A stretch of DNA of 18,547 nt from Opitutia bacterium (lineage in GTDB: Bacteria > Verrucomicrobiota > Verrucomicrobiia > Opitutales > T3Sed10-336). The position numbers and the translations under genes are program-made. The notes beneath the pieces are model-generated. The model was not told where the DNA came from, did not search any database, and saw only the letters and a list, made by a program, of their open reading frames with translations. Shown here piece by piece: positions 1,444-18,547 of the stretch (its first letter is position 1; each line of letters starts with the position of its first letter). The stretch spans positions 1-18,547 of the forward strand of contig JBJHCF010000062.1 of the NCBI GenBank assembly GCA_050506795.1, written 5' to 3'.

Positions 1444-2892
1444 TCAGGATTTGCTGAGAACGTGCCGATTGGCCATGGAAATCCCGCTGAGCATGGCGCC
1501 GGTAATTCCGAGGAATCCCTGATCGGTGCCGCACAGGAACAGGTTCCCGTAGGGAGTGCGGCCGTCTTTTATCTTCCGGGTGGCGCCGTAAACCGCGCCG
1601 TTGAGGTGACCGGTGTAACCGGCGATGGTGCGGGGTGTAAACATGTCGCGCGCCACCACGGAGCGCTGCAGCAAGGCGTCGTCGACCTCCGGAAGGAAGC
1701 GGCGAGCGGAAGCGTTAACCTGGTCGAACCAGCGCTCCTTGGCCCGGCGGTACTCGGGCTCGGGAAGTTTCGCCCAGCGGGCGTAGTTCGCCAGGCAGGT
1801 CACGCGAAGAAAACCTTCCGGCAGGATGCGGTCGCCGTAATCGAAATTATTGGGGAAACAGATCACCCCGCTGCGCGGGTCGACCAGGTCGTCCGGAACC
1901 GCGTAATGAAAGCGGTCGGAGTCGTTAAAAAAGACGATCGTATCCTTCCACCCCAGGTCGGCCGGTTGACAGGACAGGACACTGATTGTCTCCACAAAAC
2001 TGAGACGCCCGGTATCGGCCTCCCAGTCGGGAGGGGCAGAGTTCGCGGCCTCCGCGCGGCACAGCCGCAAAGTCTCCACCGAACCGGCGGAGGAAAGGAC
2101 GACATCAGCCGTCACGGTGCCCCCGTTGTCCAGCACCACCGCGTCCACCCCACCCGGGCCGATTCGCAATTCGCGCACCCCGCAGCCCATGCGCCGTTCC
2201 ACGCCGGCCTCGCGCAACTTGCGCAACAGCACCCCGGTCAAGCGGCGCACCCCTTCCAAAGGCCGGGCGAAACCTTCCATGAAAATGGACCGGAACATGA
2301 TGGCGAACTGGGACAAATCCATATCCCCTTCCCGGGCGCTGCCGTAGTACATCAGCGGACAGAGCAACATATCCTCCAGCAGGCGATCGCCAATGTGACG
2401 GCGGATAAATTCCCGGGCCGAGGTTTCCTCGGCTTCGCCCGCCAGATCCTCCAATCCGGTGACCTCTTTGGCCAGCGACCGGAACCCGTCAATTTCGGGG
2501 GGAAACACGCGGGCCACCTCCGATTCCAAAACGGAGAAATCGTTGGTGAACCTGAGTTCGGCGTCCGGAAAACACACCCGCGACCCCTTCTGCCGGCAGA
2601 GGGCCAATTCCTCGCGGTGAATCCGCAGCTGCCGGAGCAACTTCACCAGAGGCGTTCCGCGCACCCCGCGGGGGACGAAGTTGGTGACAGCGTGCAGGCC
2701 GACATCATATTTGCGGCCGTCGATCTTATAAAAACTGTTGAGGCCCCCGATTACGGTATGCCGTTCCAGCAGGCAAACGGACTTTCCGAAATGCGCCAGG
2801 CGAATGGCCGCGGCCATACCGGCCATGCCGGCGCCGATTATGACGACGTCGTAATGGGGCCGTTCGGGGCCTCTGAGTGCGACTTCCGCCAT
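1444..2892 (-). CDS. FAD-dependent oxidoreductase, phytoene desaturase (CrtI-like) superfamily, lipid-cluster type
   Basis: Rossmann motif YDVVIIGAGMAG, GGLNSFY, YDVGLHA, TPRTI..YTGH.NGAVYG and LCGTDQGFLGITGAMLSG. Lies directly downstream of ACP and fabF. Confidence 0.88.
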   Translation of the reverse strand: MAEVALRGPERPHYDVVIIGAGMAGMAAAIRLAHFGKSVCLLERHTVIGGLNSFYKIDGRKYDVGLHAVTNFVPRGVRGTPLVKLLRQLRIHREELALCRQKGSRVCFPDAELRFTNDFSVLESEVARVFPPEIDGFRSLAKEVTGLEDLAGEAEETSAREFIRRHIGDRLLEDMLLCPLMYYGSAREGDMDLSQFAIMFRSIFMEGFARPLEGVRRLTGVLLRKLREAGVERRMGCGVRELRIGPGGVDAVVLDNGGTVTADVVLSSAGSVETLRLCRAEAANSAPPDWEADTGRLSFVETISVLSCQPADLGWKDTIVFFNDSDRFHYAVPDDLVDPRSGVICFPNNFDYGDRILPEGFLRVTCLANYARWAKLPEPEYRRAKERWFDQVNASARRFLPEVDDALLQRSVVARDMFTPRTIAGYTGHLNGAVYGATRKIKDGRTPYGNLFLCGTDQGFLGITGAMLSGISMANRHVLSKS

Positions 2893-2911
2893 TGCGGCGA
2901 AATGGTTCAGG

Positions 2912-3172
2912 TTAGGCCGACTGCTTCTGCTTGAACTTGGGCGTCAGGTACTCGGCGCAGCTGTCGAGTGAAGCCAGCTTCGGGTAGTCCTCTTCCGGCA
3001 CCTCAATACCGTATTGCTTGCGGAGTTCCATCACGATATCCAGGAAATCCATGGAATCGAGATCGAGTTGGTCGCGCAGGCGCACGTCATCCTTGACATC
3101 GCTCAGGTCCTCGTCGGGAGCGATATCTTCGATAATCTTCAGAACGATCTTCTTACACTCTTCTTCGGTCAT
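2912..3172 (-). CDS. acpP: Acyl carrier protein
   Basis: 86 aa, acidic, with phosphopantetheine site LDLDSMDFLDIVMELRK. Confidence 0.93.
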   Translation of the reverse strand: MTEEECKKIVLKIIEDIAPDEDLSDVKDDVRLRDQLDLDSMDFLDIVMELRKQYGIEVPEEDYPKLASLDSCAEYLTPKFKQKQSA

Positions 3173-3193
3173 AGAATCAAAAAAGGAATCATT

Positions 3194-4429
3194 TTAATCC
3201 ACGTAACGGCGGACAATCAAGACAGAATTAATCCCGAGCATCCCGAAGGAGTTGTTCAGAATCACATCGACCCGCTGGTTTTCAAGCGGCTCATTCAGAA
3301 CCAGATTCGGCACCTCGCATTTTGGGTCGAGGTGCTCCACGTTGAGACAGTGGTGAATTTTGCCGTCGTCGAACGAAGGCAGGTTGCCGGCCAGTTCCAG
3401 GGCGCCGGCCGCTCCCATGGCGTGTCCGATGAACCCTTTGGTGTTGTTGACGCGGGTCTCGGGACAATCCGCGAACACTTCCCGCAGGGCGATACACTCC
3501 TGCTCGTCTCCCAGCGGGGTCGCGGTGGCGTGGGTGTTGACCAGGTCGATGTCCCTCGGGCTTAACCCGGCACGTTTCAGCGCCAGGCGCATGCAGGCGG
3601 CCTGGCCGCCGGAATGGGGCAGCACATAATCCCTGGCGTCGGAATTGAGCGCGTAACCGACGATCTCACCGTAGATTTTGGCTCCGCGGGCGAGAGCGTC
3701 CTCCAGGCGCTCCACGGTGTAAACGCACCCTCCCTCGCTGACCACGATCCCGTTGCGGTCGCGATCGAATGGCCGGCTGGCCCGGGCGGGGTCTTCGTGC
3801 TTTGCCAGGGCGCCCTGGCTTTTGAACGCGGCAAAGATGCCAAAGGTGTGAATGCTCTCGCTCACTCCGCCCGCCAGGGCGAAATCCACCTCCCCCAGCC
3901 GCAACATCTGCAGGGCCTGAATCAACCCGGCGTTGCCCGCCGCGCAGGCCGCCCCGATGGTGTAGTGCGGGCCGGAAATGGCCATGTTAATGGTGACCTC
4001 ACCCGCGGGGTTGTTGGCCACGGTTCTGGGGTTGTGATGGTGAGTCCAGTAGCGGGTGTCGTAATCAAATTGAGAAATATTGTAGATCTCGTTCTCGGTT
4101 TCCACGTTCCCGTGTTCCGTCACCCCGAGGTACACCCCGACCCGGTCCTTCTCCACCCCTTCCCAATCCACCCCGCTGTCGGCAACCGCCTCGCGGGAGC
4201 AGTAAATGGCGACACTGCCGGCACGGGTGCCGATACGCAGCGCCTTTTTCTTTTGATGCCGCAACGGATCGAAATGACAAACCCCGGCGTGCACCGTGCC
4301 CATGTAGCGCGTCTCGATATTCTCGATCCCCGCCACCCCGGCCAGAAGGTTCCGGCGGAACTCGGGAAGGGTGTCGCCATTGGGCGCGGTCAGGCCGATG
4401 CCTGTAATAACTATCCTGCTGTCGATCAT
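3194..4429 (-). CDS. fabF: Beta-ketoacyl-ACP synthase (FabF/FabB family)
   Basis: RIVITGIG start, ASRPFDRDRNG and NNSFG. Intact Cys-His-His triad in GAACAAG, NTHATATP and GHAMGAAG. Confidence 0.92.
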   Translation of the reverse strand: MIDSRIVITGIGLTAPNGDTLPEFRRNLLAGVAGIENIETRYMGTVHAGVCHFDPLRHQKKKALRIGTRAGSVAIYCSREAVADSGVDWEGVEKDRVGVYLGVTEHGNVETENEIYNISQFDYDTRYWTHHHNPRTVANNPAGEVTINMAISGPHYTIGAACAAGNAGLIQALQMLRLGEVDFALAGGVSESIHTFGIFAAFKSQGALAKHEDPARASRPFDRDRNGIVVSEGGCVYTVERLEDALARGAKIYGEIVGYALNSDARDYVLPHSGGQAACMRLALKRAGLSPRDIDLVNTHATATPLGDEQECIALREVFADCPETRVNNTKGFIGHAMGAAGALELAGNLPSFDDGKIHHCLNVEHLDPKCEVPNLVLNEPLENQRVDVILNNSFGMLGINSVLIVRRYVD

Positions 4430-4900: not shown

Positions 4901-5145
4901 CTAGGAGTCTGTCGGCCTTCGCCGACAGACTCCTAAAAGAGGAAATATCATGACAAAAAAAAGCTGGGGGATTTTGAAGAAAAACCAGGAATTCGGGCAC
5001 GAAACGAACGAGATTCGAGCCTAATGAGGCCTTTGCATACGATCTCATGAGTTTTTTCATCCCTGTTCCACTCTCTCGTCATGGTATTTCCTCCATTAGC
5101 AGCCTGCCGGACTTAGGCGGTAGCCTAAGTCCGGCAGGCTGCTAG
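4901..5145. repeat. Mirror-symmetric element: two perfect hairpins flanking a pair of 21-nt inverted repeats (MITE-like)
   Basis: 15-bp stem TAGGAGTCTGTCGGC at 4902-4935 and 22-bp stem TAGCAGCCTGCCGGACTTAGGC at 5097-5144. Inner inverted repeats at 4934-4954 and 5078-5098 match at 18/21. Confidence 0.85.
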
Positions 5146-7740: not shown

Positions 7741-7758
7741 GAATCTTTCGGACTAAAG

Positions 7759-7967
7759 CGAATGCTACTCGGTTAGGGCGGTTCATCGTCAGATGTATCC
7801 GAATCGAGATTGCGATTCCGCTCCCTGAAGGGCGGCGCTCCCGCGCCGCCGGTGCGGGTAGTGTGCCCGCGCTCCCAATCCCAGATCAGCACCAGAGTGA
7901 TACAGGCATTCCTGCCTGTCGATCACAAGAACCTCACGCGGCCATGCGGGAGCATGGCCCTCCAGGG
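7759..7967 (+). repeat. Second copy of the composite hairpin plus REP cluster, with an extra REP-like palindrome
   Basis: 7759-7810 matches the reverse complement of 206-257 at about 41/52. REP palindromes at 7831-7850, 7854-7870, 7902-7919 and 7938-7963. Confidence 0.85.
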
Positions 7968-11047: not shown

Positions 11048-12502
11048 ATGGCAAGAGACTGGCTTAAAGGTGTCGCGGATTATTACGATGTGATCGTCAT
11101 CGGCAGTGGACTCGGAGGACTGACCGGGGCCAACTGCCTGGCCAAAGCTGGATACTCCGTCCTGCTGCTGGAGCACCACTACCAGTTGGGCGGGCTGGCG
11201 ACCTGGTTCCGGCGGCCGGGCGGGCATATTTTCGACATCTCCCTGCACGGCTTTCCGGTCGGCATGATCAAATCCTGCCGCAAGTACTGGAGCCGGGAGA
11301 TCGCGGATTCCATCGTTCAGCTCAAGAACGTCCGTTTCATCAACCCGCAGTTCAACGTCTGGACCACCTTCGACCGCAAAGACTTCACCCGCATCCTGCG
11401 GGAGGATTTCGGAATCTCCGCGGAGACCGTGGAGAACTTTTTCCGCACCCTGCGGCAAATGAATTTCTACGATGACGACCAACGGACCACGGGTGAACTC
11501 TTCGAGGAGTTCTTTCCGGGCCGCGACGACGTCAAACGGCTGCTCATGGAGCCGATCGCCTACGCCAACGGCTCGACCCTCGGGGATCCGGCCATCACCT
11601 ATGGCATCGTGTTCTCCAACTTCATGAGCAAAGGGGTCTACACCTTTCAGGGCGGCACCGACGACCTGATCAAGAAGATGGTCGGCGTCCTCCGCGGCAA
11701 CGGCGTGGACCTGCGTCGCAACGCCCTGGTGGAGAAACTCCTGGTCGAGGACGGGGGCAATGGCAAAGAGGTGGCCGGGGTGATCGCCAACGGACGCAAA
11801 ATCCGCTGCGGCGCGGTGCTGTCCAACGCCAATCTCAAAAACACCATCCTCAAACTCGGCGGCGAGGAGAACTTCTCGGCCGAATTTGTCGATGAGGTCA
11901 AGAAGGTCCGCCTCAACAGCAGTTCCTCCCAGGTGTACATGGGAATCCGCAAAGGAGAATCGATTCCCAACATCGGCGACCTGGTGTTTACCTCGGGATC
12001 CGAGACGTTTTCCAGCGACGAACTCGTCGGCCGGAACACCAAGAGCCGAACTTTTTCCGTCTACTACCCCGAGACCCGTCCCGGCAGCGACCGCTACACC
12101 ATCGTCGCCTCACTCAACGCCCGCTACGAGGACTGGATGAACCTTTCCGACGCGGAATACGAAAGCGAAAAACAGCGCATGATCGAAGAATCCCTCGATG
12201 TCCTGGAGACCTACATCCCCGGCATCCGCGACAAAATCGACCACCTTGAAGCCGCCACACCCCGCACCATCCAACGCTACACCCGGCACATGGGAGGCAC
12301 GTCCTTCGGCACCAAGTTCGAAGGCCTCAAATGCTCCATGGAATTGCCCGATCGGCTCCCCGGCCTCTATCACGCCGGCTCGGTCGGAATCATAATGTCC
12401 GGCTGGCTCGGAACCATCAACTACGGCGTGATCGTAGCCAACAAAGTCGACAAACACCTCGCCGCCAAATCCGGAAAAACCGCCGTTCCCGCAAACACGT
12501 GA
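11048..12502 (+). CDS. Second FAD-dependent oxidoreductase of the phytoene desaturase superfamily, lipid-cluster type
   Basis: [37 protein letters not shown] and [15 protein letters not shown]. Confidence 0.88.
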
Positions 12503-14114: not shown

Positions 14115-14436
14115 CTCACAAGGAGCAACGGAGATTAGTCCAGTTGAATTCTCCGTGGCTTTGTGGCTCCGTGTGAGTCCCATTGTTTTTTTCAGACGTC
14201 TCAGTCCGAACCCAACAACAACCTGCTCATGCCGTGTCAAATTTCAAAACAAATCATTTCCTCACACGGAGCCACAAAGCCACAAAGGCAAAACTGCGGG
14301 ATCCGCGTGAAGGCGAAGGAGCGGGAGTGCTTGCGAAGGAAACTGGGACAATCAAAGCAACCCTCGTAAGACGGGTCATAAGATTTAACTCCCCCTCCGT
14401 GCCTTTGTGGCTCAGTGTGAGCCCCATTGTTTTTTT
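14115..14436. repeat. Two units bounded by CTCACACGGAGCCACAAAG-type inverted repeats, each ending in a T-tract
   Basis: 42-bp direct repeat at 14151-14192 and 14395-14436. Inverted copies at 14115-14133 and 14261-14287. Confidence 0.8.
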
Positions 14437-14451
14437 CGGGGGAATCCGTTG

Positions 14452-14958
14452 GGGTCAGGCCCGCATACTTCAAAAGAAAGCGGCACGCCAGCGCTCGCAA
14501 CGGCGATTTGCGCCGCCTCTCCCCAAACGCCCCTGCCTCGACCCGCTGCCCCTCGGCCACTGCTTCCAACACCTCGCCGGGCTCAAGCGGCGCTCCCTTT
14601 CACCAACTTCGCCTTGAATCGACCGTCCAAGAGATGCCCATGCCGCCGGTGACGCCGGTTATAATATACCGTGTAAGCCGTGCTCAGCTTCTGCATGAAA
14701 CGCGAAAGATTACCTTCCGGTGTTTCCAACACCAAATGGTAATGATTCGCCATCAGGCAAAACAAATACAACCGGACATGGCACTCTTCGACCCCCTCGC
14801 CCAGCCGCTCCAAAAAGCGCCGGTAATCCCTGGCATCCCGGAAAAGCCGCAACCGTTCATCCCGCCAGCTCCCCACCATTCGGCTGGTCACGTGATAAAT
14901 TGCTCCTGGATATGGTAGATGTCGCTTCGCTCGGTACCAACCGCAACGGACGTGCCAT
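14452..14958 (-). pseudogene. Decayed REP-associated tyrosine transposase (RAYT, Y1/HUH)
   Basis: MARPLRL start is frameshifted from YPGAIYHVTSR. HUH motif MANHYHL and GHLLDGRFKAKLV are present. The catalytic Y..NP region is deleted, and a C-terminal helical fragment in another frame is cut at CTGACCCC. Confidence 0.88.
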
Positions 14959-14998
14959 ATTTCAGATACTCTGCACATGAACGAAAAAAGTAAAGTTT

Positions 14999-15062
14999 TA
15001 TTTTAAGGGCTGACCCCAACGGTTTTCCCCTATTTTAAGGGCTGACCCCAACGGTTTCCCCC
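14999..15062 (+). repeat. 32-bp tandem duplication containing the CTGACCCC terminal motif
   Basis: TATTTTAAGGGCTGACCCCAACGGTTT(T/C)CCCC occurs twice. An inverted counterpart lies at about 14439-14462. Confidence 0.92.
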
Positions 15063-15252
15063 AGCCCACTGGCTCGGCTCCCGGATTGTGGTGATTACGG
15101 AGCTCAATAGCCCGCCTGCGCTTTCCCCTGTCAATACTTCCCCACTCCCTTGCGGGTCGTCGAGGCATGACTCAGGGCCAGCATGGCTCGCTACACCTTT
15201 ACTGTAAGACTCTTTCATTCTCTACTCTCCGCCGATTTTAATCGGCGCTTTC
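15063..15252 (-). mobile_element. 5' fragment (part of domain I) of a group II intron, with no RT ORF
   Basis: The minus strand reads GCGCCGATTAAAATCGGCG...AGGTGTAGCGAGCCAT...GAGTCATGC...TTGACAGGGG...GCAGGCGGGCTATTGAGC. I recognise this as the 5' region of bacterial group II introns, often mis-annotated as an MKESY..GVASH.GPESC ORF. Confidence 0.7.
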
Positions 15253-15370
15253 GGGCTGACCCCTTCCGCCTCCTCATCGGAACTGCCGGTCCCAGCTGAG
15301 GGCGGTGGAACAACAAAACTCTACGAGGAGCCCTTTTCCATAAACACTATTAGCTCCTCTTCGGGAGCAA

Positions 15371-15922
15371 TTACTCCAACAAACGTCCACGGCGCTTGAA
15401 ACGCACCCAGATAGACGGATCTCTATGCCACAATCGCCCATTGTGATCGACTCCATAAAACACGTCGTCTCCACTTCCACACTCATCAAAACCATTTTGA
15501 CCGACAGACCACACTGCAAAACGGAAGCGATGTCGCAAGCGATCAAGACATCTGTCTTCAATTGCTTCAGTCCCGTCGCCAAGGTAATAAATCCTTAGGG
15601 GACGACCGTTCAAATCGATCATCCTTCCTTCAATGTCAAATTGAAGTACTGAAAACGATTCTAAAGTATATTGATCTGACTCTTCAAGCCAGCGTCTAAA
15701 CAAAAGCTCTTCGTTCAATTCCCGCCCAGGAACGACTTCGGGCTCCGGTCCGATCGTTTGTTCATAAATCCTATCCATGTAAATGGCTACCCGCGACATC
15801 TCGACCATCTCAAACACATCAATTCCTCGATGGTAACGCGCAATGTGCGCACGCCACTGGTATATCAGTAGCAACGCGACCACGACAAATATACAGACAG
15901 CGATCTTGAAAGCCTGTCTCAT
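15371..15922 (-). CDS. Putative immunity protein: membrane-anchored, with a GspG/pseudopilin-like C-terminal motif
   Basis: ATGA overlap with the RHS stop codon, N-terminal TM helix, IDLNGRPLRIYY...VWSVGQNG....GSGDDV, and AT-richer composition. Confidence 0.65.
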   Translation of the reverse strand: MRQAFKIAVCIFVVVALLLIYQWRAHIARYHRGIDVFEMVEMSRVAIYMDRIYEQTIGPEPEVVPGRELNEELLFRRWLEESDQYTLESFSVLQFDIEGRMIDLNGRPLRIYYLGDGTEAIEDRCLDRLRHRFRFAVWSVGQNGFDECGSGDDVFYGVDHNGRLWHRDPSIWVRFKRRGRLLE

Positions 15923-18108
15923 GGATCAGTTGCACCAAGTGCAAGGCCGTCACGTCGGTAGATGAATTCGCAAGCCCGAAGATCAGCATTGATTCGATAG
16001 CCATTATTTCTTTCAATTATTTCTCTAGCTCGATCCGCACCAAACAATAGATCATAGGTTCTTGCATCCTCATGATGCCCCCTGCCCGGAAGGTCAGCAA
16101 CCGTATCATCAGTTCTCCCTATCAGATGTGTCACCTCATGAAAAAAAGCGACTGCGCGTGAATGACTCGATTCCTTCGTTTCAAAAAACAGGTCGGTTAT
16201 GTAAAGGTTTCCAAAACCACTTACCAAAGCTTTTCCAGTGGCATCAAATGCAATGGACTTACGCACAACCTGTTTCTTTTTAGATCGCAATGCCGCAATC
16301 GTTTGATCAACCGTATCAAGCATATACTTGATTTGATAAAGAAGTATACCTCGACCTCTTGTATCGCAATACAGGTCTGGAGCAAGATCAAGATATTCCT
16401 GCAAATCAGGTTGCACAATCATCAGTGCTTCAAGCCATGCACGATCTTGAGCCCACAACACCATCTCCTCTTCTTCTGGTGTCCAATAATCTGTGTATGA
16501 TGAGTATCCGTTAATTGCGAGGTTGAGTTGATCCCAAACATGATTTGGACCAAAAACAAATTTAAGCTCATATAGCCCCAAAAAGTCTACACGATTTATC
16601 GCATCATTTGTCGCGAATGCATACAGGTTTGGACCGCCCCGCTCGTTGATCGGATCCCTGTTCAGGAAACGGCCCGTAACTGGATTCTGGTAACGGAGGC
16701 CGTAATAAAGGAGATCGGTCTCCGCGTCTTCGTATTTCGTGCTGAAGCCAAACGGCATTTCCTTCGCGACGCCGGTTTGAACCACCGGTTCGCCGAAGGG
16801 GTTGTAATCTGCCCGGCCAGCCACGGCTAGTGTTGCGGTGTTCGTCCACGCAACGATGTTTCCGTTCGCGTCGCTGCTTGCGGCAAACGTCTGCGTTGGT
16901 GTTTGCGTCCAGAGCAAGCCACCGACTCCACCGGCTCCTTGCATCGACCCGCTCATGTCCGGCCCCCAGACGTGCTTGCGAACCATGGCATCACCGTCGA
17001 GCGCGTCGCGTTCTTCGATCAAGTTCCAGCCATCGTAGACAAAGCGCAAATCCTTGGTGGTCAGCCAACCGGAGGAACCGGTGTCCCAGTCCTTGACCAC
17101 CTTTTGAATGCGTCGTCCCTGGAAGTCGTACGAAAACTCAAGGCGTTGTTTCAAAGCGGGAAAGGCGGTGGCGACACTCGCCCGAGTTTCCATCGCTTTC
17201 AAGCGATTTTCAGCGTCCCACTCGTAGGTCCAGCGGCCGTCGGACTCCAGGTTGCCGTCAGCGTCATGGACGAAGGCTTCTGGGGTCTTGGCCAGGAAGG
17301 CTTGACGGGTTTCGTCCACGGTTTGACTATCAAATACGGCTTCCACTTCAATACTACTGTAAACCGCAGTTGCGGAATTTGCCACCGAAATTTCTCTTCT
17401 AAAATCGCGTCCGGTCCGCTGGGTCGATTGGCTGTCCACCGTCACTGTAGCTGTGGCGTGCGCTTCACCCAACACCTCGATGTAGCCGGGAACGGTGCGA
17501 TCATCATACTCATTGAGGAGATTCGGCGTGTAGGTGGCCGTCCGGCTATTGCGGGTGGCGGTTTCGCGATTTCCGATCTCGTCGAAGGTGAAACCATAGC
17601 TGTAGCCGGGCAGGATGGCGGATTGCGGATCGGCGGAGAGGCGTTTATGGGCGGATGTCACTTGGCCAAGTGAGTCATACCCGTAGTGCCAGGCGCGCCC
17701 GTCTTCGTGCTCGACGATGGTGCGCTGGTTGGCATCGTTGTGGGTGTAGTCGCGGCGGACGACGGTTGCGCCATCAACAATGGTTTCCACCCACGCGATG
17801 CGCCCGATATTGTCGATGGAGCGTTCATGCCGGAGGCGGGGCACGCCGACGCGGCGAACGGTGACACTGTCGAGTATCTCCGTGCCGGTCTCGTACCCGA
17901 AGTCGGCGTGATGATGATCTTCAGCGATACGGCTCAACCTTCCGGCCGTGTCGAAGAGGTAGGTCGCTTCGTAACCAGCTTCGGTCGCAAGCACGTTGAG
18001 GCGTTGGTGCGCATCGTACCCGCGGTCGATGCTGACGCCGCTCAACAGCCCGGAACCGGTATAATCCTCATACTCCAGCGCCCCGGCGGCGGTATAGCCG
18101 CGGCCCCG
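15919..18108 (-). pseudogene. 5'-truncated RHS/YD-repeat polymorphic toxin with a C-terminal HExxH metallopeptidase domain
   Basis: YD repeats and RHS core FGFSTKY.D.ETDLLYYGLRY..P.TGRFLNRDPI.E.GG.NLYAF. Cleavage motif DFLGL, then a 217-aa tip containing HEVTH. RHS-like sequence stops at the GGGGTCAG motif and no native start is visible. Confidence 0.88.
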
Positions 18109-18171
18109 TAAGGGGTCAGGCCTAAGTAGATAGGTATTGACTGGATTCGAACGGTTTGGGAGAAAGGCGTG

Positions 18172-18547
18172 ATGCCGAGGACTTTGAGAGTGGAGTATGA
18201 AGGTGCGCGCTACCACGTGTTGAACCGGGGCAATTACCGGCAGGCCCTGTTTGCGGTTCATCGAACAGGGGAGGCGTTTCGCGAGATGCTGTATCAGACG
18301 TGCCGGAGGTTTGGGTGGATCTTGCACGGGTATGTGGTGATGAGTAATCACTATCACCTGGCGCTGGAGACGCCTGTGGGGAATCTCTCGGCAGGGATGC
18401 AGTATTTGCAGTCGGTTTTTTCGAACCGCTTCAACAAGTTTGTCGGGGAGCGTGGGCATGTGTTCCAAGGTCGTTACAAGGCTTTGCTTCTGGAGGATTC
18501 GACCGCGTTGCTCCAGGTGGTGGATTACATCCATCTGAATCCGGTGA
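18172..18547 (+). mobile_element. REP-associated tyrosine transposase (RAYT, Y1/HUH); runs off the window and is absent from the ORF track
   Basis: Manual translation gives MPRTLRVEYEGARYHVLNRGN...MSNHYHLALETP.GNLS.GMQ...GHVFQGRYKALL...VVDYIHLNPV. HUH motif and catalytic Tyr are present. GGGGTCAGGCC lies 60 nt upstream. Confidence 0.93.

Follow-up and report, generated by a model that had tools for sequence, protein, structure and literature searches.

TIRtron ends at the seams of an orphan RHS toxin-immunity module in an Opitutia bacterium: possible traces of one-ended transposon joining

The window analysed here is the entire contig C62 (18,547 nt) of the source genome G000, an Opitutia bacterium assembled to 4.94 Mb in 82 contigs. 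Its last part is a mosaic of two transposase genes (RAYT1 and RAYT2), a fragment of a group II intron and an orphan RHS toxin-immunity module. The motif GGGGTCAG is present in the window at 14451 (+), 15010 (-), 15042 (-), 15256 (-) and 18112 (+). These five copies match a published type of transposon end, the GGGGWSAS core of the terminal inverted repeats (TIRs) of TIRtrons, elements whose HUH (Y1) transposases are called TIRYTs. Comparison with related sequences suggests that the mosaic is, on balance, a pile-up from one-ended joining by TIRYTs, which would make or reshuffle orphan modules as a by-product.

Whole TIRtrons would insert first. Single ends would then re-join, at a point about 13 nt beyond the GGGTCA core, to neighbouring DNA whose sequence is not fixed, and this re-joining would delete or duplicate the flanking DNA (one-ended transposition). 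One such join may have taken away the 5′ part of the RHS gene, leaving the tip and immunity gene between outward-facing ends, and the resulting unit could be moved as cargo and would also offer a template to the usual recombination of RHS cores with one another. The end at 15256 was probably then invaded by a group II intron, which would later have been shortened by a RAYT1 end. An enzyme without a fixed site would be unable to graft a tip in frame. The best reading appears to be a by-product activity that feeds, rather than replaces, homologous recombination. We infer that TIRYT is the agent of the observed joins.

The five positions had been listed in an earlier note on this DNA, and all were correct. 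The count of five in the window compares with a mean of 0.81 in 200 shuffles, none of which reached five. The scan of the genome that the note had called for showed no enrichment of the bare 8-mer (166 copies observed against 184 expected under the highest-order Markov model or 130 under order 3). The 8-mer is therefore unremarkable genome-wide and locally clustered; the cluster is real, and its interpretation depends on context. As a whole, the observation made in the note was partly confirmed and its interpretation partly supported.

TIRtron ends and their joints with other DNA

The motif and the ends are already known as TIRtron TIRs, the core having been described in 2013 (Di Nocera, De Gregorio, Rocco; PMC3733652). 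This published consensus supports the claim of the earlier note that the motif belongs to an element with an HUH (Y1) transposase. In two later studies, TIRtron/TIRYT is equated with subclass 2.1 of TnpA-Y1, TIRYTs being the second-largest subclass and present in 14.9% of strains (Quentin et al. 2018, PMC6006769), and the same enzymes form RAYT Group 1 (Bertels et al. 2017, PMC5581495). RAYT2 carries NHYH, FQ and YIHLNP, corresponding to the subclass 2.1 set NH[YF]H, FQ, Y[IV]HLNP. The elements resemble TIRtrons also in that inverted repeats with a GGGG[AT][CG]A[CG] core flank a Y1 HUH gene for about 320-350 aa, in their dispersed solo, dimeric and grouped ends, and in being more like insertion sequences (ISs) than other RAYT groups.

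In loci selected for a transposase, an inward-facing motif was found ≤260 nt from 46 of 85 TIRYT gene starts and near 29 of 40 gene ends. The left end lay 51-69 nt before the gene start in 33 of those 46, a range in which the 56-nt spacing of RAYT2 is typical. In the genome G048, 13 inverted pairs are intact; they measure 919-1087 bp and differ in their flanks, and no target-site duplication was obvious by eye at them. Near-perfect inverted repeat pairs surround the TIRYT copies on C35 of the source genome. These intact pairs, together with a 98% copy of RAYT2 next to another flank, indicate that the elements move as units.

A canonical RAYT/REPtron was considered and rejected. With the model for that family (NF047646, cut-off 80), the truncated RAYT2 scored 57.5 bits and the complete C35 copy 66.4, and the ends are TIRs without hairpins of the repetitive extragenic palindrome (REP) type; seven ends folded no better than shuffled sequences (z -1.0 to 0.85). 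An AlphaFold model of the complete C35 relative (318 aa), with a predicted local distance difference test score (pLDDT) of 89.9, had TnpA-REP (4er8) as best match (E 1.9e-6) and ends in three helices (269-317). Pfam HTH_23 was detected in one of 40 relatives (E 0.005); the C-terminal tail of RAYT2 lies beyond the window. No sigma-70 promoter was reported at the ends.

A second repeated end type, led by GGGACACC and forming a paired unit of about 250 nt, was seen in G048 (1403453-1410469 and 2662001-2791134), where it interrupts the 3′ part of many TIRYT copies.

To judge by where identity between copies stops, the joints of the ends with other DNA fall at varying sites, about 10-13 nt beyond GGGTCA. 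Among the regions compared in G048, identity stopped 10-13 nt before GGGTCA in nine of 30 ends with a parent sequence, and five of these nine rows stopped after 109-411 identical bases. In the source genome it stopped 9-13 nt before the core in four of eight rows. Among 132 pairs of copies of one end, 51 remained identical outward for 9-14 nt, 13 nt being the commonest length in this range (16 pairs). In the RHS arrays of G048, 29 of 312 duplication ends lay 8-16 nt outside an end, against 1 in the inner-side control and a random mean of 2.6 (maximum 11 in 2000), an excess that partly only marks the limit of the repeated ends. At 15010/15042, on C39 and C43 and in G048, leaders and the tails of elements occur as tandem repeats. 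No fixed target sequence was evident at the junctions. Host DNA bounded by ends on both sides is duplicated as well: on C35, a 0.8-kb copy (94.5%) runs from about 10 nt before one end-like motif to 13 nt before another.

TIRtron ends are enriched and co-oriented behind RHS genes in part of the phylum

Behind RHS-immunity pairs, TIRtron ends and TIRYT genes are more frequent than expected, and mostly share one orientation, in some members of the phylum. An end profile was built from transposase-flanking ends only and was then run on loci chosen for RHS alone, with RHS cores located by hidden Markov model (HMM). Set 1 was reduced from 60 loci to 56, in 21 genomes, because four had no core hit with the HMM; set 2 consisted of 40 loci, one being excluded as chosen for its motif (39 loci, 23 genomes). 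In set 1, 20 co-oriented ends were present ≤2.5 kb downstream of RHS against 2.0 expected, and four were opposite. The co-oriented ends were spread over 15 of the 56 loci and 10 genomes, and seven of them came from two genomes without a RAYT2-like match among the matches listed. Set 2 gave five co-oriented ends against 1.2 expected and none opposite, in four of 39 loci, with TIRYT genes in three loci. The enrichment downstream of immunity genes that the earlier note had proposed to look for was thus found in the first set and was weaker in the second.

In the 22 loci that hold both, 33 of 36 TIRYT gene pieces were co-oriented with the RHS core, compared with 24 of 36 for any upstream open reading frame (ORF) used as control. 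Six of the 44 G048 elements among the matches listed lie ≤10 kb from an RHS core against 0.81 expected (rotation P 0.006). For replication strand as a cause of the orientation bias there was only a weak skew signal (positive in 25 of 37 loci), the G048 pieces being uninformative.

The arrangement of the window recurs at C35 and at C61 of G012. C35 has the same plan, i.e. a TIRtron, an RHS gene cut at an end, a predicted immunity gene, an end and a second TIRtron; its two tandem TIRtrons are each followed by different cargo. On G012:C61 an orphan lies between two outward-facing ends of one type. In C62, C35 and G012:C61 alike the RHS gene is cut at an end and homology begins 5-10 codons from it, with break points at 1376 (C62) and 1350 (C35) of the G042 protein and, in G012, about 200 residues before the core end. 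TIRtrons also follow full-length or long RHS genes on C68 and in G042, G048, G101, G278 and G153. In G048, orphans, immunity-like genes and TIRYT pieces alternate in an array behind a full-length RHS gene, with nearly all ends in one direction.

Two further arrangements of ends were observed. On C10 of the source genome (25904-27055, L004), outward ends bracket a gene for a 222-aa DUF6036/AbiEii-like nucleotidyltransferase, a non-RHS cargo. In G057, a genome without a RAYT2-like match among the matches listed, mini-elements of about 65 nt that consist of two facing TIRtron ends lie between RHS orphans (L210 4851-4929 and 8548-8608; L212 9964-10024).

The mosaic of the window

The features of the mosaic are collected in Table 1. 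The block between the 15256 and 18112 motifs has the features of an orphan RHS tip-immunity module, with a 5′-truncated core, a low-GC (guanine plus cytosine) tip and a coupled downstream gene. The RHS piece matches residues 1568-2080 of the full-length RHS protein on C55. It is cut at the leader of the RAYT2 left end, in agreement with the 5′ truncation that had been placed at 18112. The predicted toxin tip is likely an M35/aspzincin-like zinc peptidase, as a lead only: an Atlas feature search returned two unnamed clusters (0.95) and then an Aspzincin_M35 cluster (0.94), and the Atlas recognition of the tip (2157) is below the 2300 mark. The tip had no match in Pfam, NCBIfam, PDB or homologue searches (including longer proteins), and its fold from the single sequence was unusable (pLDDT 36). 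The downstream gene, which overlaps the toxin stop by 4 nt, is predicted to be the immunity gene by its position only; its protein matched no Pfam or NCBIfam family. No other copy of the tip or the immunity gene, as a possible parent, was found in the source genome. The 15256 end stands 108 nt after the predicted immunity gene.

The earlier note had described the 15256 and 18112 motifs as inverted copies that bracket this block. Their 13/15 match was right, and it is mostly generic end consensus. Within the inner 18 nt the two agree at 7/18 positions, versus 17/18 for 18112 and its sister on C68, so that they are not a cognate pair. A cognate inverted pair around the toxin block was rejected on these grounds; a composite transposon, with cargo between cognate ends, was likewise rejected for the window and is seen only at G012:C61.

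Table 1. Features of the mosaic in the window (contig C62)
Feature	Coordinates	Strand	Basis
Hybrid RAYT1 right end	14438..14458	+	14-nt outer leader and GGGTCAG core
RAYT1, dead TIRYT gene	14459..14958	-	Pfam Y1_Tnp; homologue alignment; translation
RAYT1 left end, twice	14999..15062	-	32-nt tandem duplication D10, 97% (motifs 15042, 15010)
Group II intron 5′ stub, ~190 nt	15063..15252	-	Aligned with two full introns; without reverse transcriptase
Solo TIRtron end	15253..15275	-	Motif 15256, purine-rich leader, end-profile score 18.1
Predicted immunity gene, 183 aa	15371..15922	-	ORF list; hydrophobic N-terminus; GC 0.47
Predicted toxin tip, 218 aa	15919..16575	-	HEXXH motif; GC 0.43
RHS core 3′ third	16576..18099	-	YD repeats; TIGR03696 72 bits; without own start codon
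RAYT2 TIRtron left end	18100..18137	+	Motif 18112, inferred 13-nt leader, core 56 nt before start codon
RAYT2, TIRYT gene cut by contig end	18169..18547	+	Pfam Y1_Tnp; NHYH, FQ, YIHLNP

The identity of RAYT2 to its sister copy on C68 (98%) starts at 18107, and the C68 flank differs. The C-terminus and right ends are represented on C39, C43 and C69, and the right ends there have 11/18 inner bases in common with the RAYT2 left end. Unitig depth was 50 over RAYT2 against 12-15 on the flank (about four-fold), and RAYT2 is probably present in three to four genome copies. The missing RHS 5′ part was not found beyond any of the three right ends (C39, C43, C69), the right end of C62 itself being unphased. 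A simple insertion with the RHS 5′ part past RAYT2, which the earlier note had named as a refuting outcome, was not seen behind these three right ends. An RHS-like middle piece is present near the end of C9, without an end motif.

On C69, an 87% copy of the 3′ end of the window's photolyase gene plus the adjoining repeat is flanked by a RAYT1-type fragment on one side and by a RAYT2 right end on the other. This duplicate region spans 15033-15752 of C69 (L008). Should C62 be joined to C69, a direct duplication would enclose both the RHS block and RAYT2. Read antisense, RAYT2 has an open frame that is continuous with the frame of the truncated RHS gene, giving 875 codons without a stop (15919-18546, -); this is probably incidental and could provide a start codon.

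RAYT1 matches the homologue P0001 over residues 7-115 (87%) and 245-299 (78%) only. Residues 116-244, including the region of the catalytic Tyr, are gone while the HUH motif NHYH is retained; the first codons are out of frame and the C-terminal helices are cut at the motif. At two of these lesions, the internal deletion and the out-of-frame start, no motif is present. The statement that the motif marks every junction is therefore overstated: the copies do lie at module seams, and the two lesions inside RAYT1 are without one. At the right end, the 14451 leader mirrors the leaders of 15010 and 15042 (repeats I13, I17), and the neighbouring repeat D3 loses its match to a sister copy at 14437, 14 nt before the 14451 core. 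That core falls on the G-L-T codons of RAYT1, where the homologue match ends, as had been noted for the cut C-terminus. Intact homologues read ...YAGLTQREVA at this place, and GLTQR is present in 15 of 120 homologues. Since the core coincides with RAYT1's own codons, the outer leader of the true right end has probably been joined to a similar sequence within the gene. The outer copy of the duplicated left end cuts the intron stub short, and the intron homologue runs on past this junction. Solo copies of the RAYT1-type left end were found on C3 (twice), C5, C14 and C48.

The group II intron fragment is real (Rfam RF02005, 15038-15213, 83.8 bits against a cut-off of 49), as had been proposed. 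It begins directly inside the 15256 end, which is likely the intron's landing site. It is a remnant: a complete intron is not present, only the 5′ stub being found, and no reverse transcriptase (RT) is encoded on contig C62. Fusions of an end with this type of intron were found at 16 places in 12 of 401 genomes, against 1 for a control pattern. In G408 a complete intron with RT directly follows the end core, in G091 and G444 the fusion is again located behind an RHS gene, and a similar stub is present in two RHS arrays of G048 (90517, 3986873). Related introns in G198 and G337 have different upstream sequence. These comparisons suggest an intron lineage that likely homes into TIRtron ends. The 5′ end of the end-associated intron is without the usual GUGYG start, in about ten genomes and at loci that include L434, L435, L287, L441 and L439.

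Elsewhere in the window, dispersed palindromic repeat copies (D3, I8, I9) at 14151-14437 have many relatives genome-wide; they are REP-like and unrelated to the GGGTCAG ends. A further dispersed inverted repeat pair (I1, I2, I5) is present at 116-264 and 7752-7962, and a perfect 22-bp hairpin (I10) at 5097-5144. According to the ORF list only, 1444-4429 and 11048-12502 encode a fatty-acid-synthase-like ketosynthase, acyl carrier proteins and two phytoene-dehydrogenase-like oxidoreductases, perhaps an unusual lipid pathway.

Alternative explanations, known systems and significance

Several results weigh against one-ended joining by TIRYTs. The remaining 21 of the 30 G048 junction rows stop at other offsets (3, or 15-26 nt), by eye mostly at a mismatch or a doubled leader. 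Outward identity has further peaks at 3 nt (19 pairs) and 0 nt (18 pairs) of the 132, and the C62 and C68 copies have different leaders in spite of 98% identity; the elements are therefore not cut at one site only. At 14451 the junction coincides with the core and may simply be a microhomology deletion. No circle or empty site was seen in the contigs, and no alternative joints on C35 in public data. At a stricter score set 2 gave 1 end against 0.4 expected, which is not significant. Co-orientation is partly geometric, because the nearest end shows first and contigs break inside elements; P values are overstated because the genomes are related, and the background was drawn largely from coding DNA.

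An ordinary accumulation of ISs in a dispensable zone behind RHS, with host recombination or slippage producing the scars, is unlikely and is the alternative that fares best. Other mobile genes were found ≤3.5 kb behind RHS in 11 loci (IS110, IS3, IS4-like, IS1380-like, IS66, IS21, IS630-like, YhgA and intron RT) and Y1_Tnp ORFs in 3. This control covered 280 of 341 ORFs, with G279 left out, and was made without genome-wide normalisation, so that it shows presence rather than relative enrichment. Orphan cdi arrays with interspersed transposase genes are described (PMC4927057), the two RAYT1 lesions are without motif, and an insertion followed by any deletion of the far side would give the same picture. 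Against such a passive origin, truncated TIRYT genes and host copies repeatedly end 10-13 nt before an end, a position that RecA or slippage would not be expected to target. Moreover, the ends of the G048 array nearly all face one way and are without partners, whereas the other IS genes behind RHS are in mixed orientation.

A dedicated integron-like system, in which a TIRYT subfamily captures and exchanges tip-immunity cassettes in place of recombination between RHS cores, was the interpretation of the earlier note; it now appears quite improbable. The outward-end geometry at C62, C35, G012:C61 and probably L332 would fit it, as would the ends of one type at G012:C61, the alternating and nearly unidirectional G048 array, the excess of G048 elements near RHS and the different cargo behind the two C35 TIRtrons. 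The break points in RHS are, on the other hand, variable, and the RHS frames have no matching site: two same-strand and four opposite end-like hits in 203 kb are background, which leaves no receptor site for an in-frame exchange of tips. RHS was found in just 7 of 49 TIRYT loci from the genome collection and 2 of 79 from metagenomes (9/128 overall), and the other 38 of the 44 listed G048 elements lie elsewhere, many among genes with metabolic-looking N-termini (read by eye). The ends that bracket the module of the window differ in type, and in the loci surveyed no RHS cassette bounded by ends recurred in identical form at a second, unrelated site. In the RHS arrays of G279 (66 cores in 140 kb) and G066 (18 cores) neither an end motif nor a TIRYT gene was present, and the arrays of G118 and G070 are likewise without ends and TIRYT. 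Orphans without boundary motifs, which the earlier note had taken as evidence against its proposal, are thus the majority. An integron-like system was also rejected as a known parallel, there being no fixed site on every cassette, no receptor, variable break points and most orphans without ends.

The orphan arrays of G279 (L249-L255) are very long, with cores about 1.5 kb apart and no TIRtron trace.

That short repeats stitched the mosaic together during assembly is extremely improbable: the source genome is fragmented, with many contigs breaking at TIRtrons, but each junction is crossed without differences by unitigs of the public run X1 (one each for 14250-14640, 14678-16504 and 16477-18159), and an equal geometry is present in G048 and G042, both single-contig genomes. 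The source sample may itself be X1, and the unitig agreement is accordingly a second assembly rather than independent biology; the misassembly check that the earlier note had proposed gave no sign of an artefact. One joint near the mosaic in X1, from window position 14177 to 14597, probably comes from the C69 paralogue.

One-ended joining by TIRYTs can be compared with several known systems. TnpA-REP is described as joining strands and as having several cut sites on the 5′ or 3′ side of its repeat (Corneloup et al. 2021, PMC8266576); junctions that vary around a fixed motif agree with this. TIRYTs would share single-strand HUH chemistry with TnpA-REP/REP-BIME and IS200/IS605, as the modelled structure, with 4er8 as its best match, also suggests. 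In contrast to TnpA-REP, TIRtrons are without a GTAG-tagged hairpin, score below the NF047646 cut-off and move as whole elements with near-identical copies. IS91/ISCR elements are HUH elements with one fixed and one variable end that pick up and duplicate host DNA and form complex arrays; they encode Y2 enzymes and have no terminal inverted repeats. The scars seen here, i.e. the offsets and the C35 and C69 duplications, would fit an IS91/ISCR-like one-ended transposition. The difference is that both TIRtron ends are inverted repeats, either of which is seemingly able to join. The compared loci showed neither a site-specific recombinase nor a fixed site for cassettes. Recombinase-associated immunity arrays are a further comparison.

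Orphan rhs-CT/rhsI and cdiA-CT/cdiI modules are known as tandem arrays co-oriented behind a full gene, with interspersed transposases; they are used through homologous recombination, and two models are given for their first origin (PMC4927057). Unlike in these arrays, some orphans here begin exactly at a transposon end. The term 'rhs' is absent from the main texts of PMC3733652, PMC6006769 and PMC5581495, and nothing in the available parts of the TIRtron descriptions mentions a boundary 10-13 nt away from the core on its outer side, joining by one end, cargo flanked by outward ends or an intron within an end. In a literature search from which most subscription papers were out of reach, nothing was found that connects RAYT/TIRYT with RHS orphans or with introns; one preprint holds both terms and, in its available part, handles them separately (10.1101/2024.07.17.603846).

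A bolder form of one-ended joining may be envisaged, which we regard as rather doubtful. TIRYTs would then act like ISCR, as HUH transposases working with one end, and would build and remodel arrays of orphan toxin-immunity modules in some Verrucomicrobiota. They would cut about 13 nt outside GGGTCA, take up tip and immunity genes as circles and deposit them co-oriented behind full-length RHS genes, and a group II intron lineage would have specialised on their ends.

The accessible parts of the published accounts give no mechanism for TIRYT, and the scars described here point to a cut 10-13 nt beyond the core and to a one-ended joining reaction, both of which can be tested. Were the passive origin true, the mosaic would be an ordinary IS graveyard behind a toxin gene. 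If it is true that TIRYT ends make or carry orphans in some lineages, they would provide a concrete and assayable route to the origin of orphan RHS modules.

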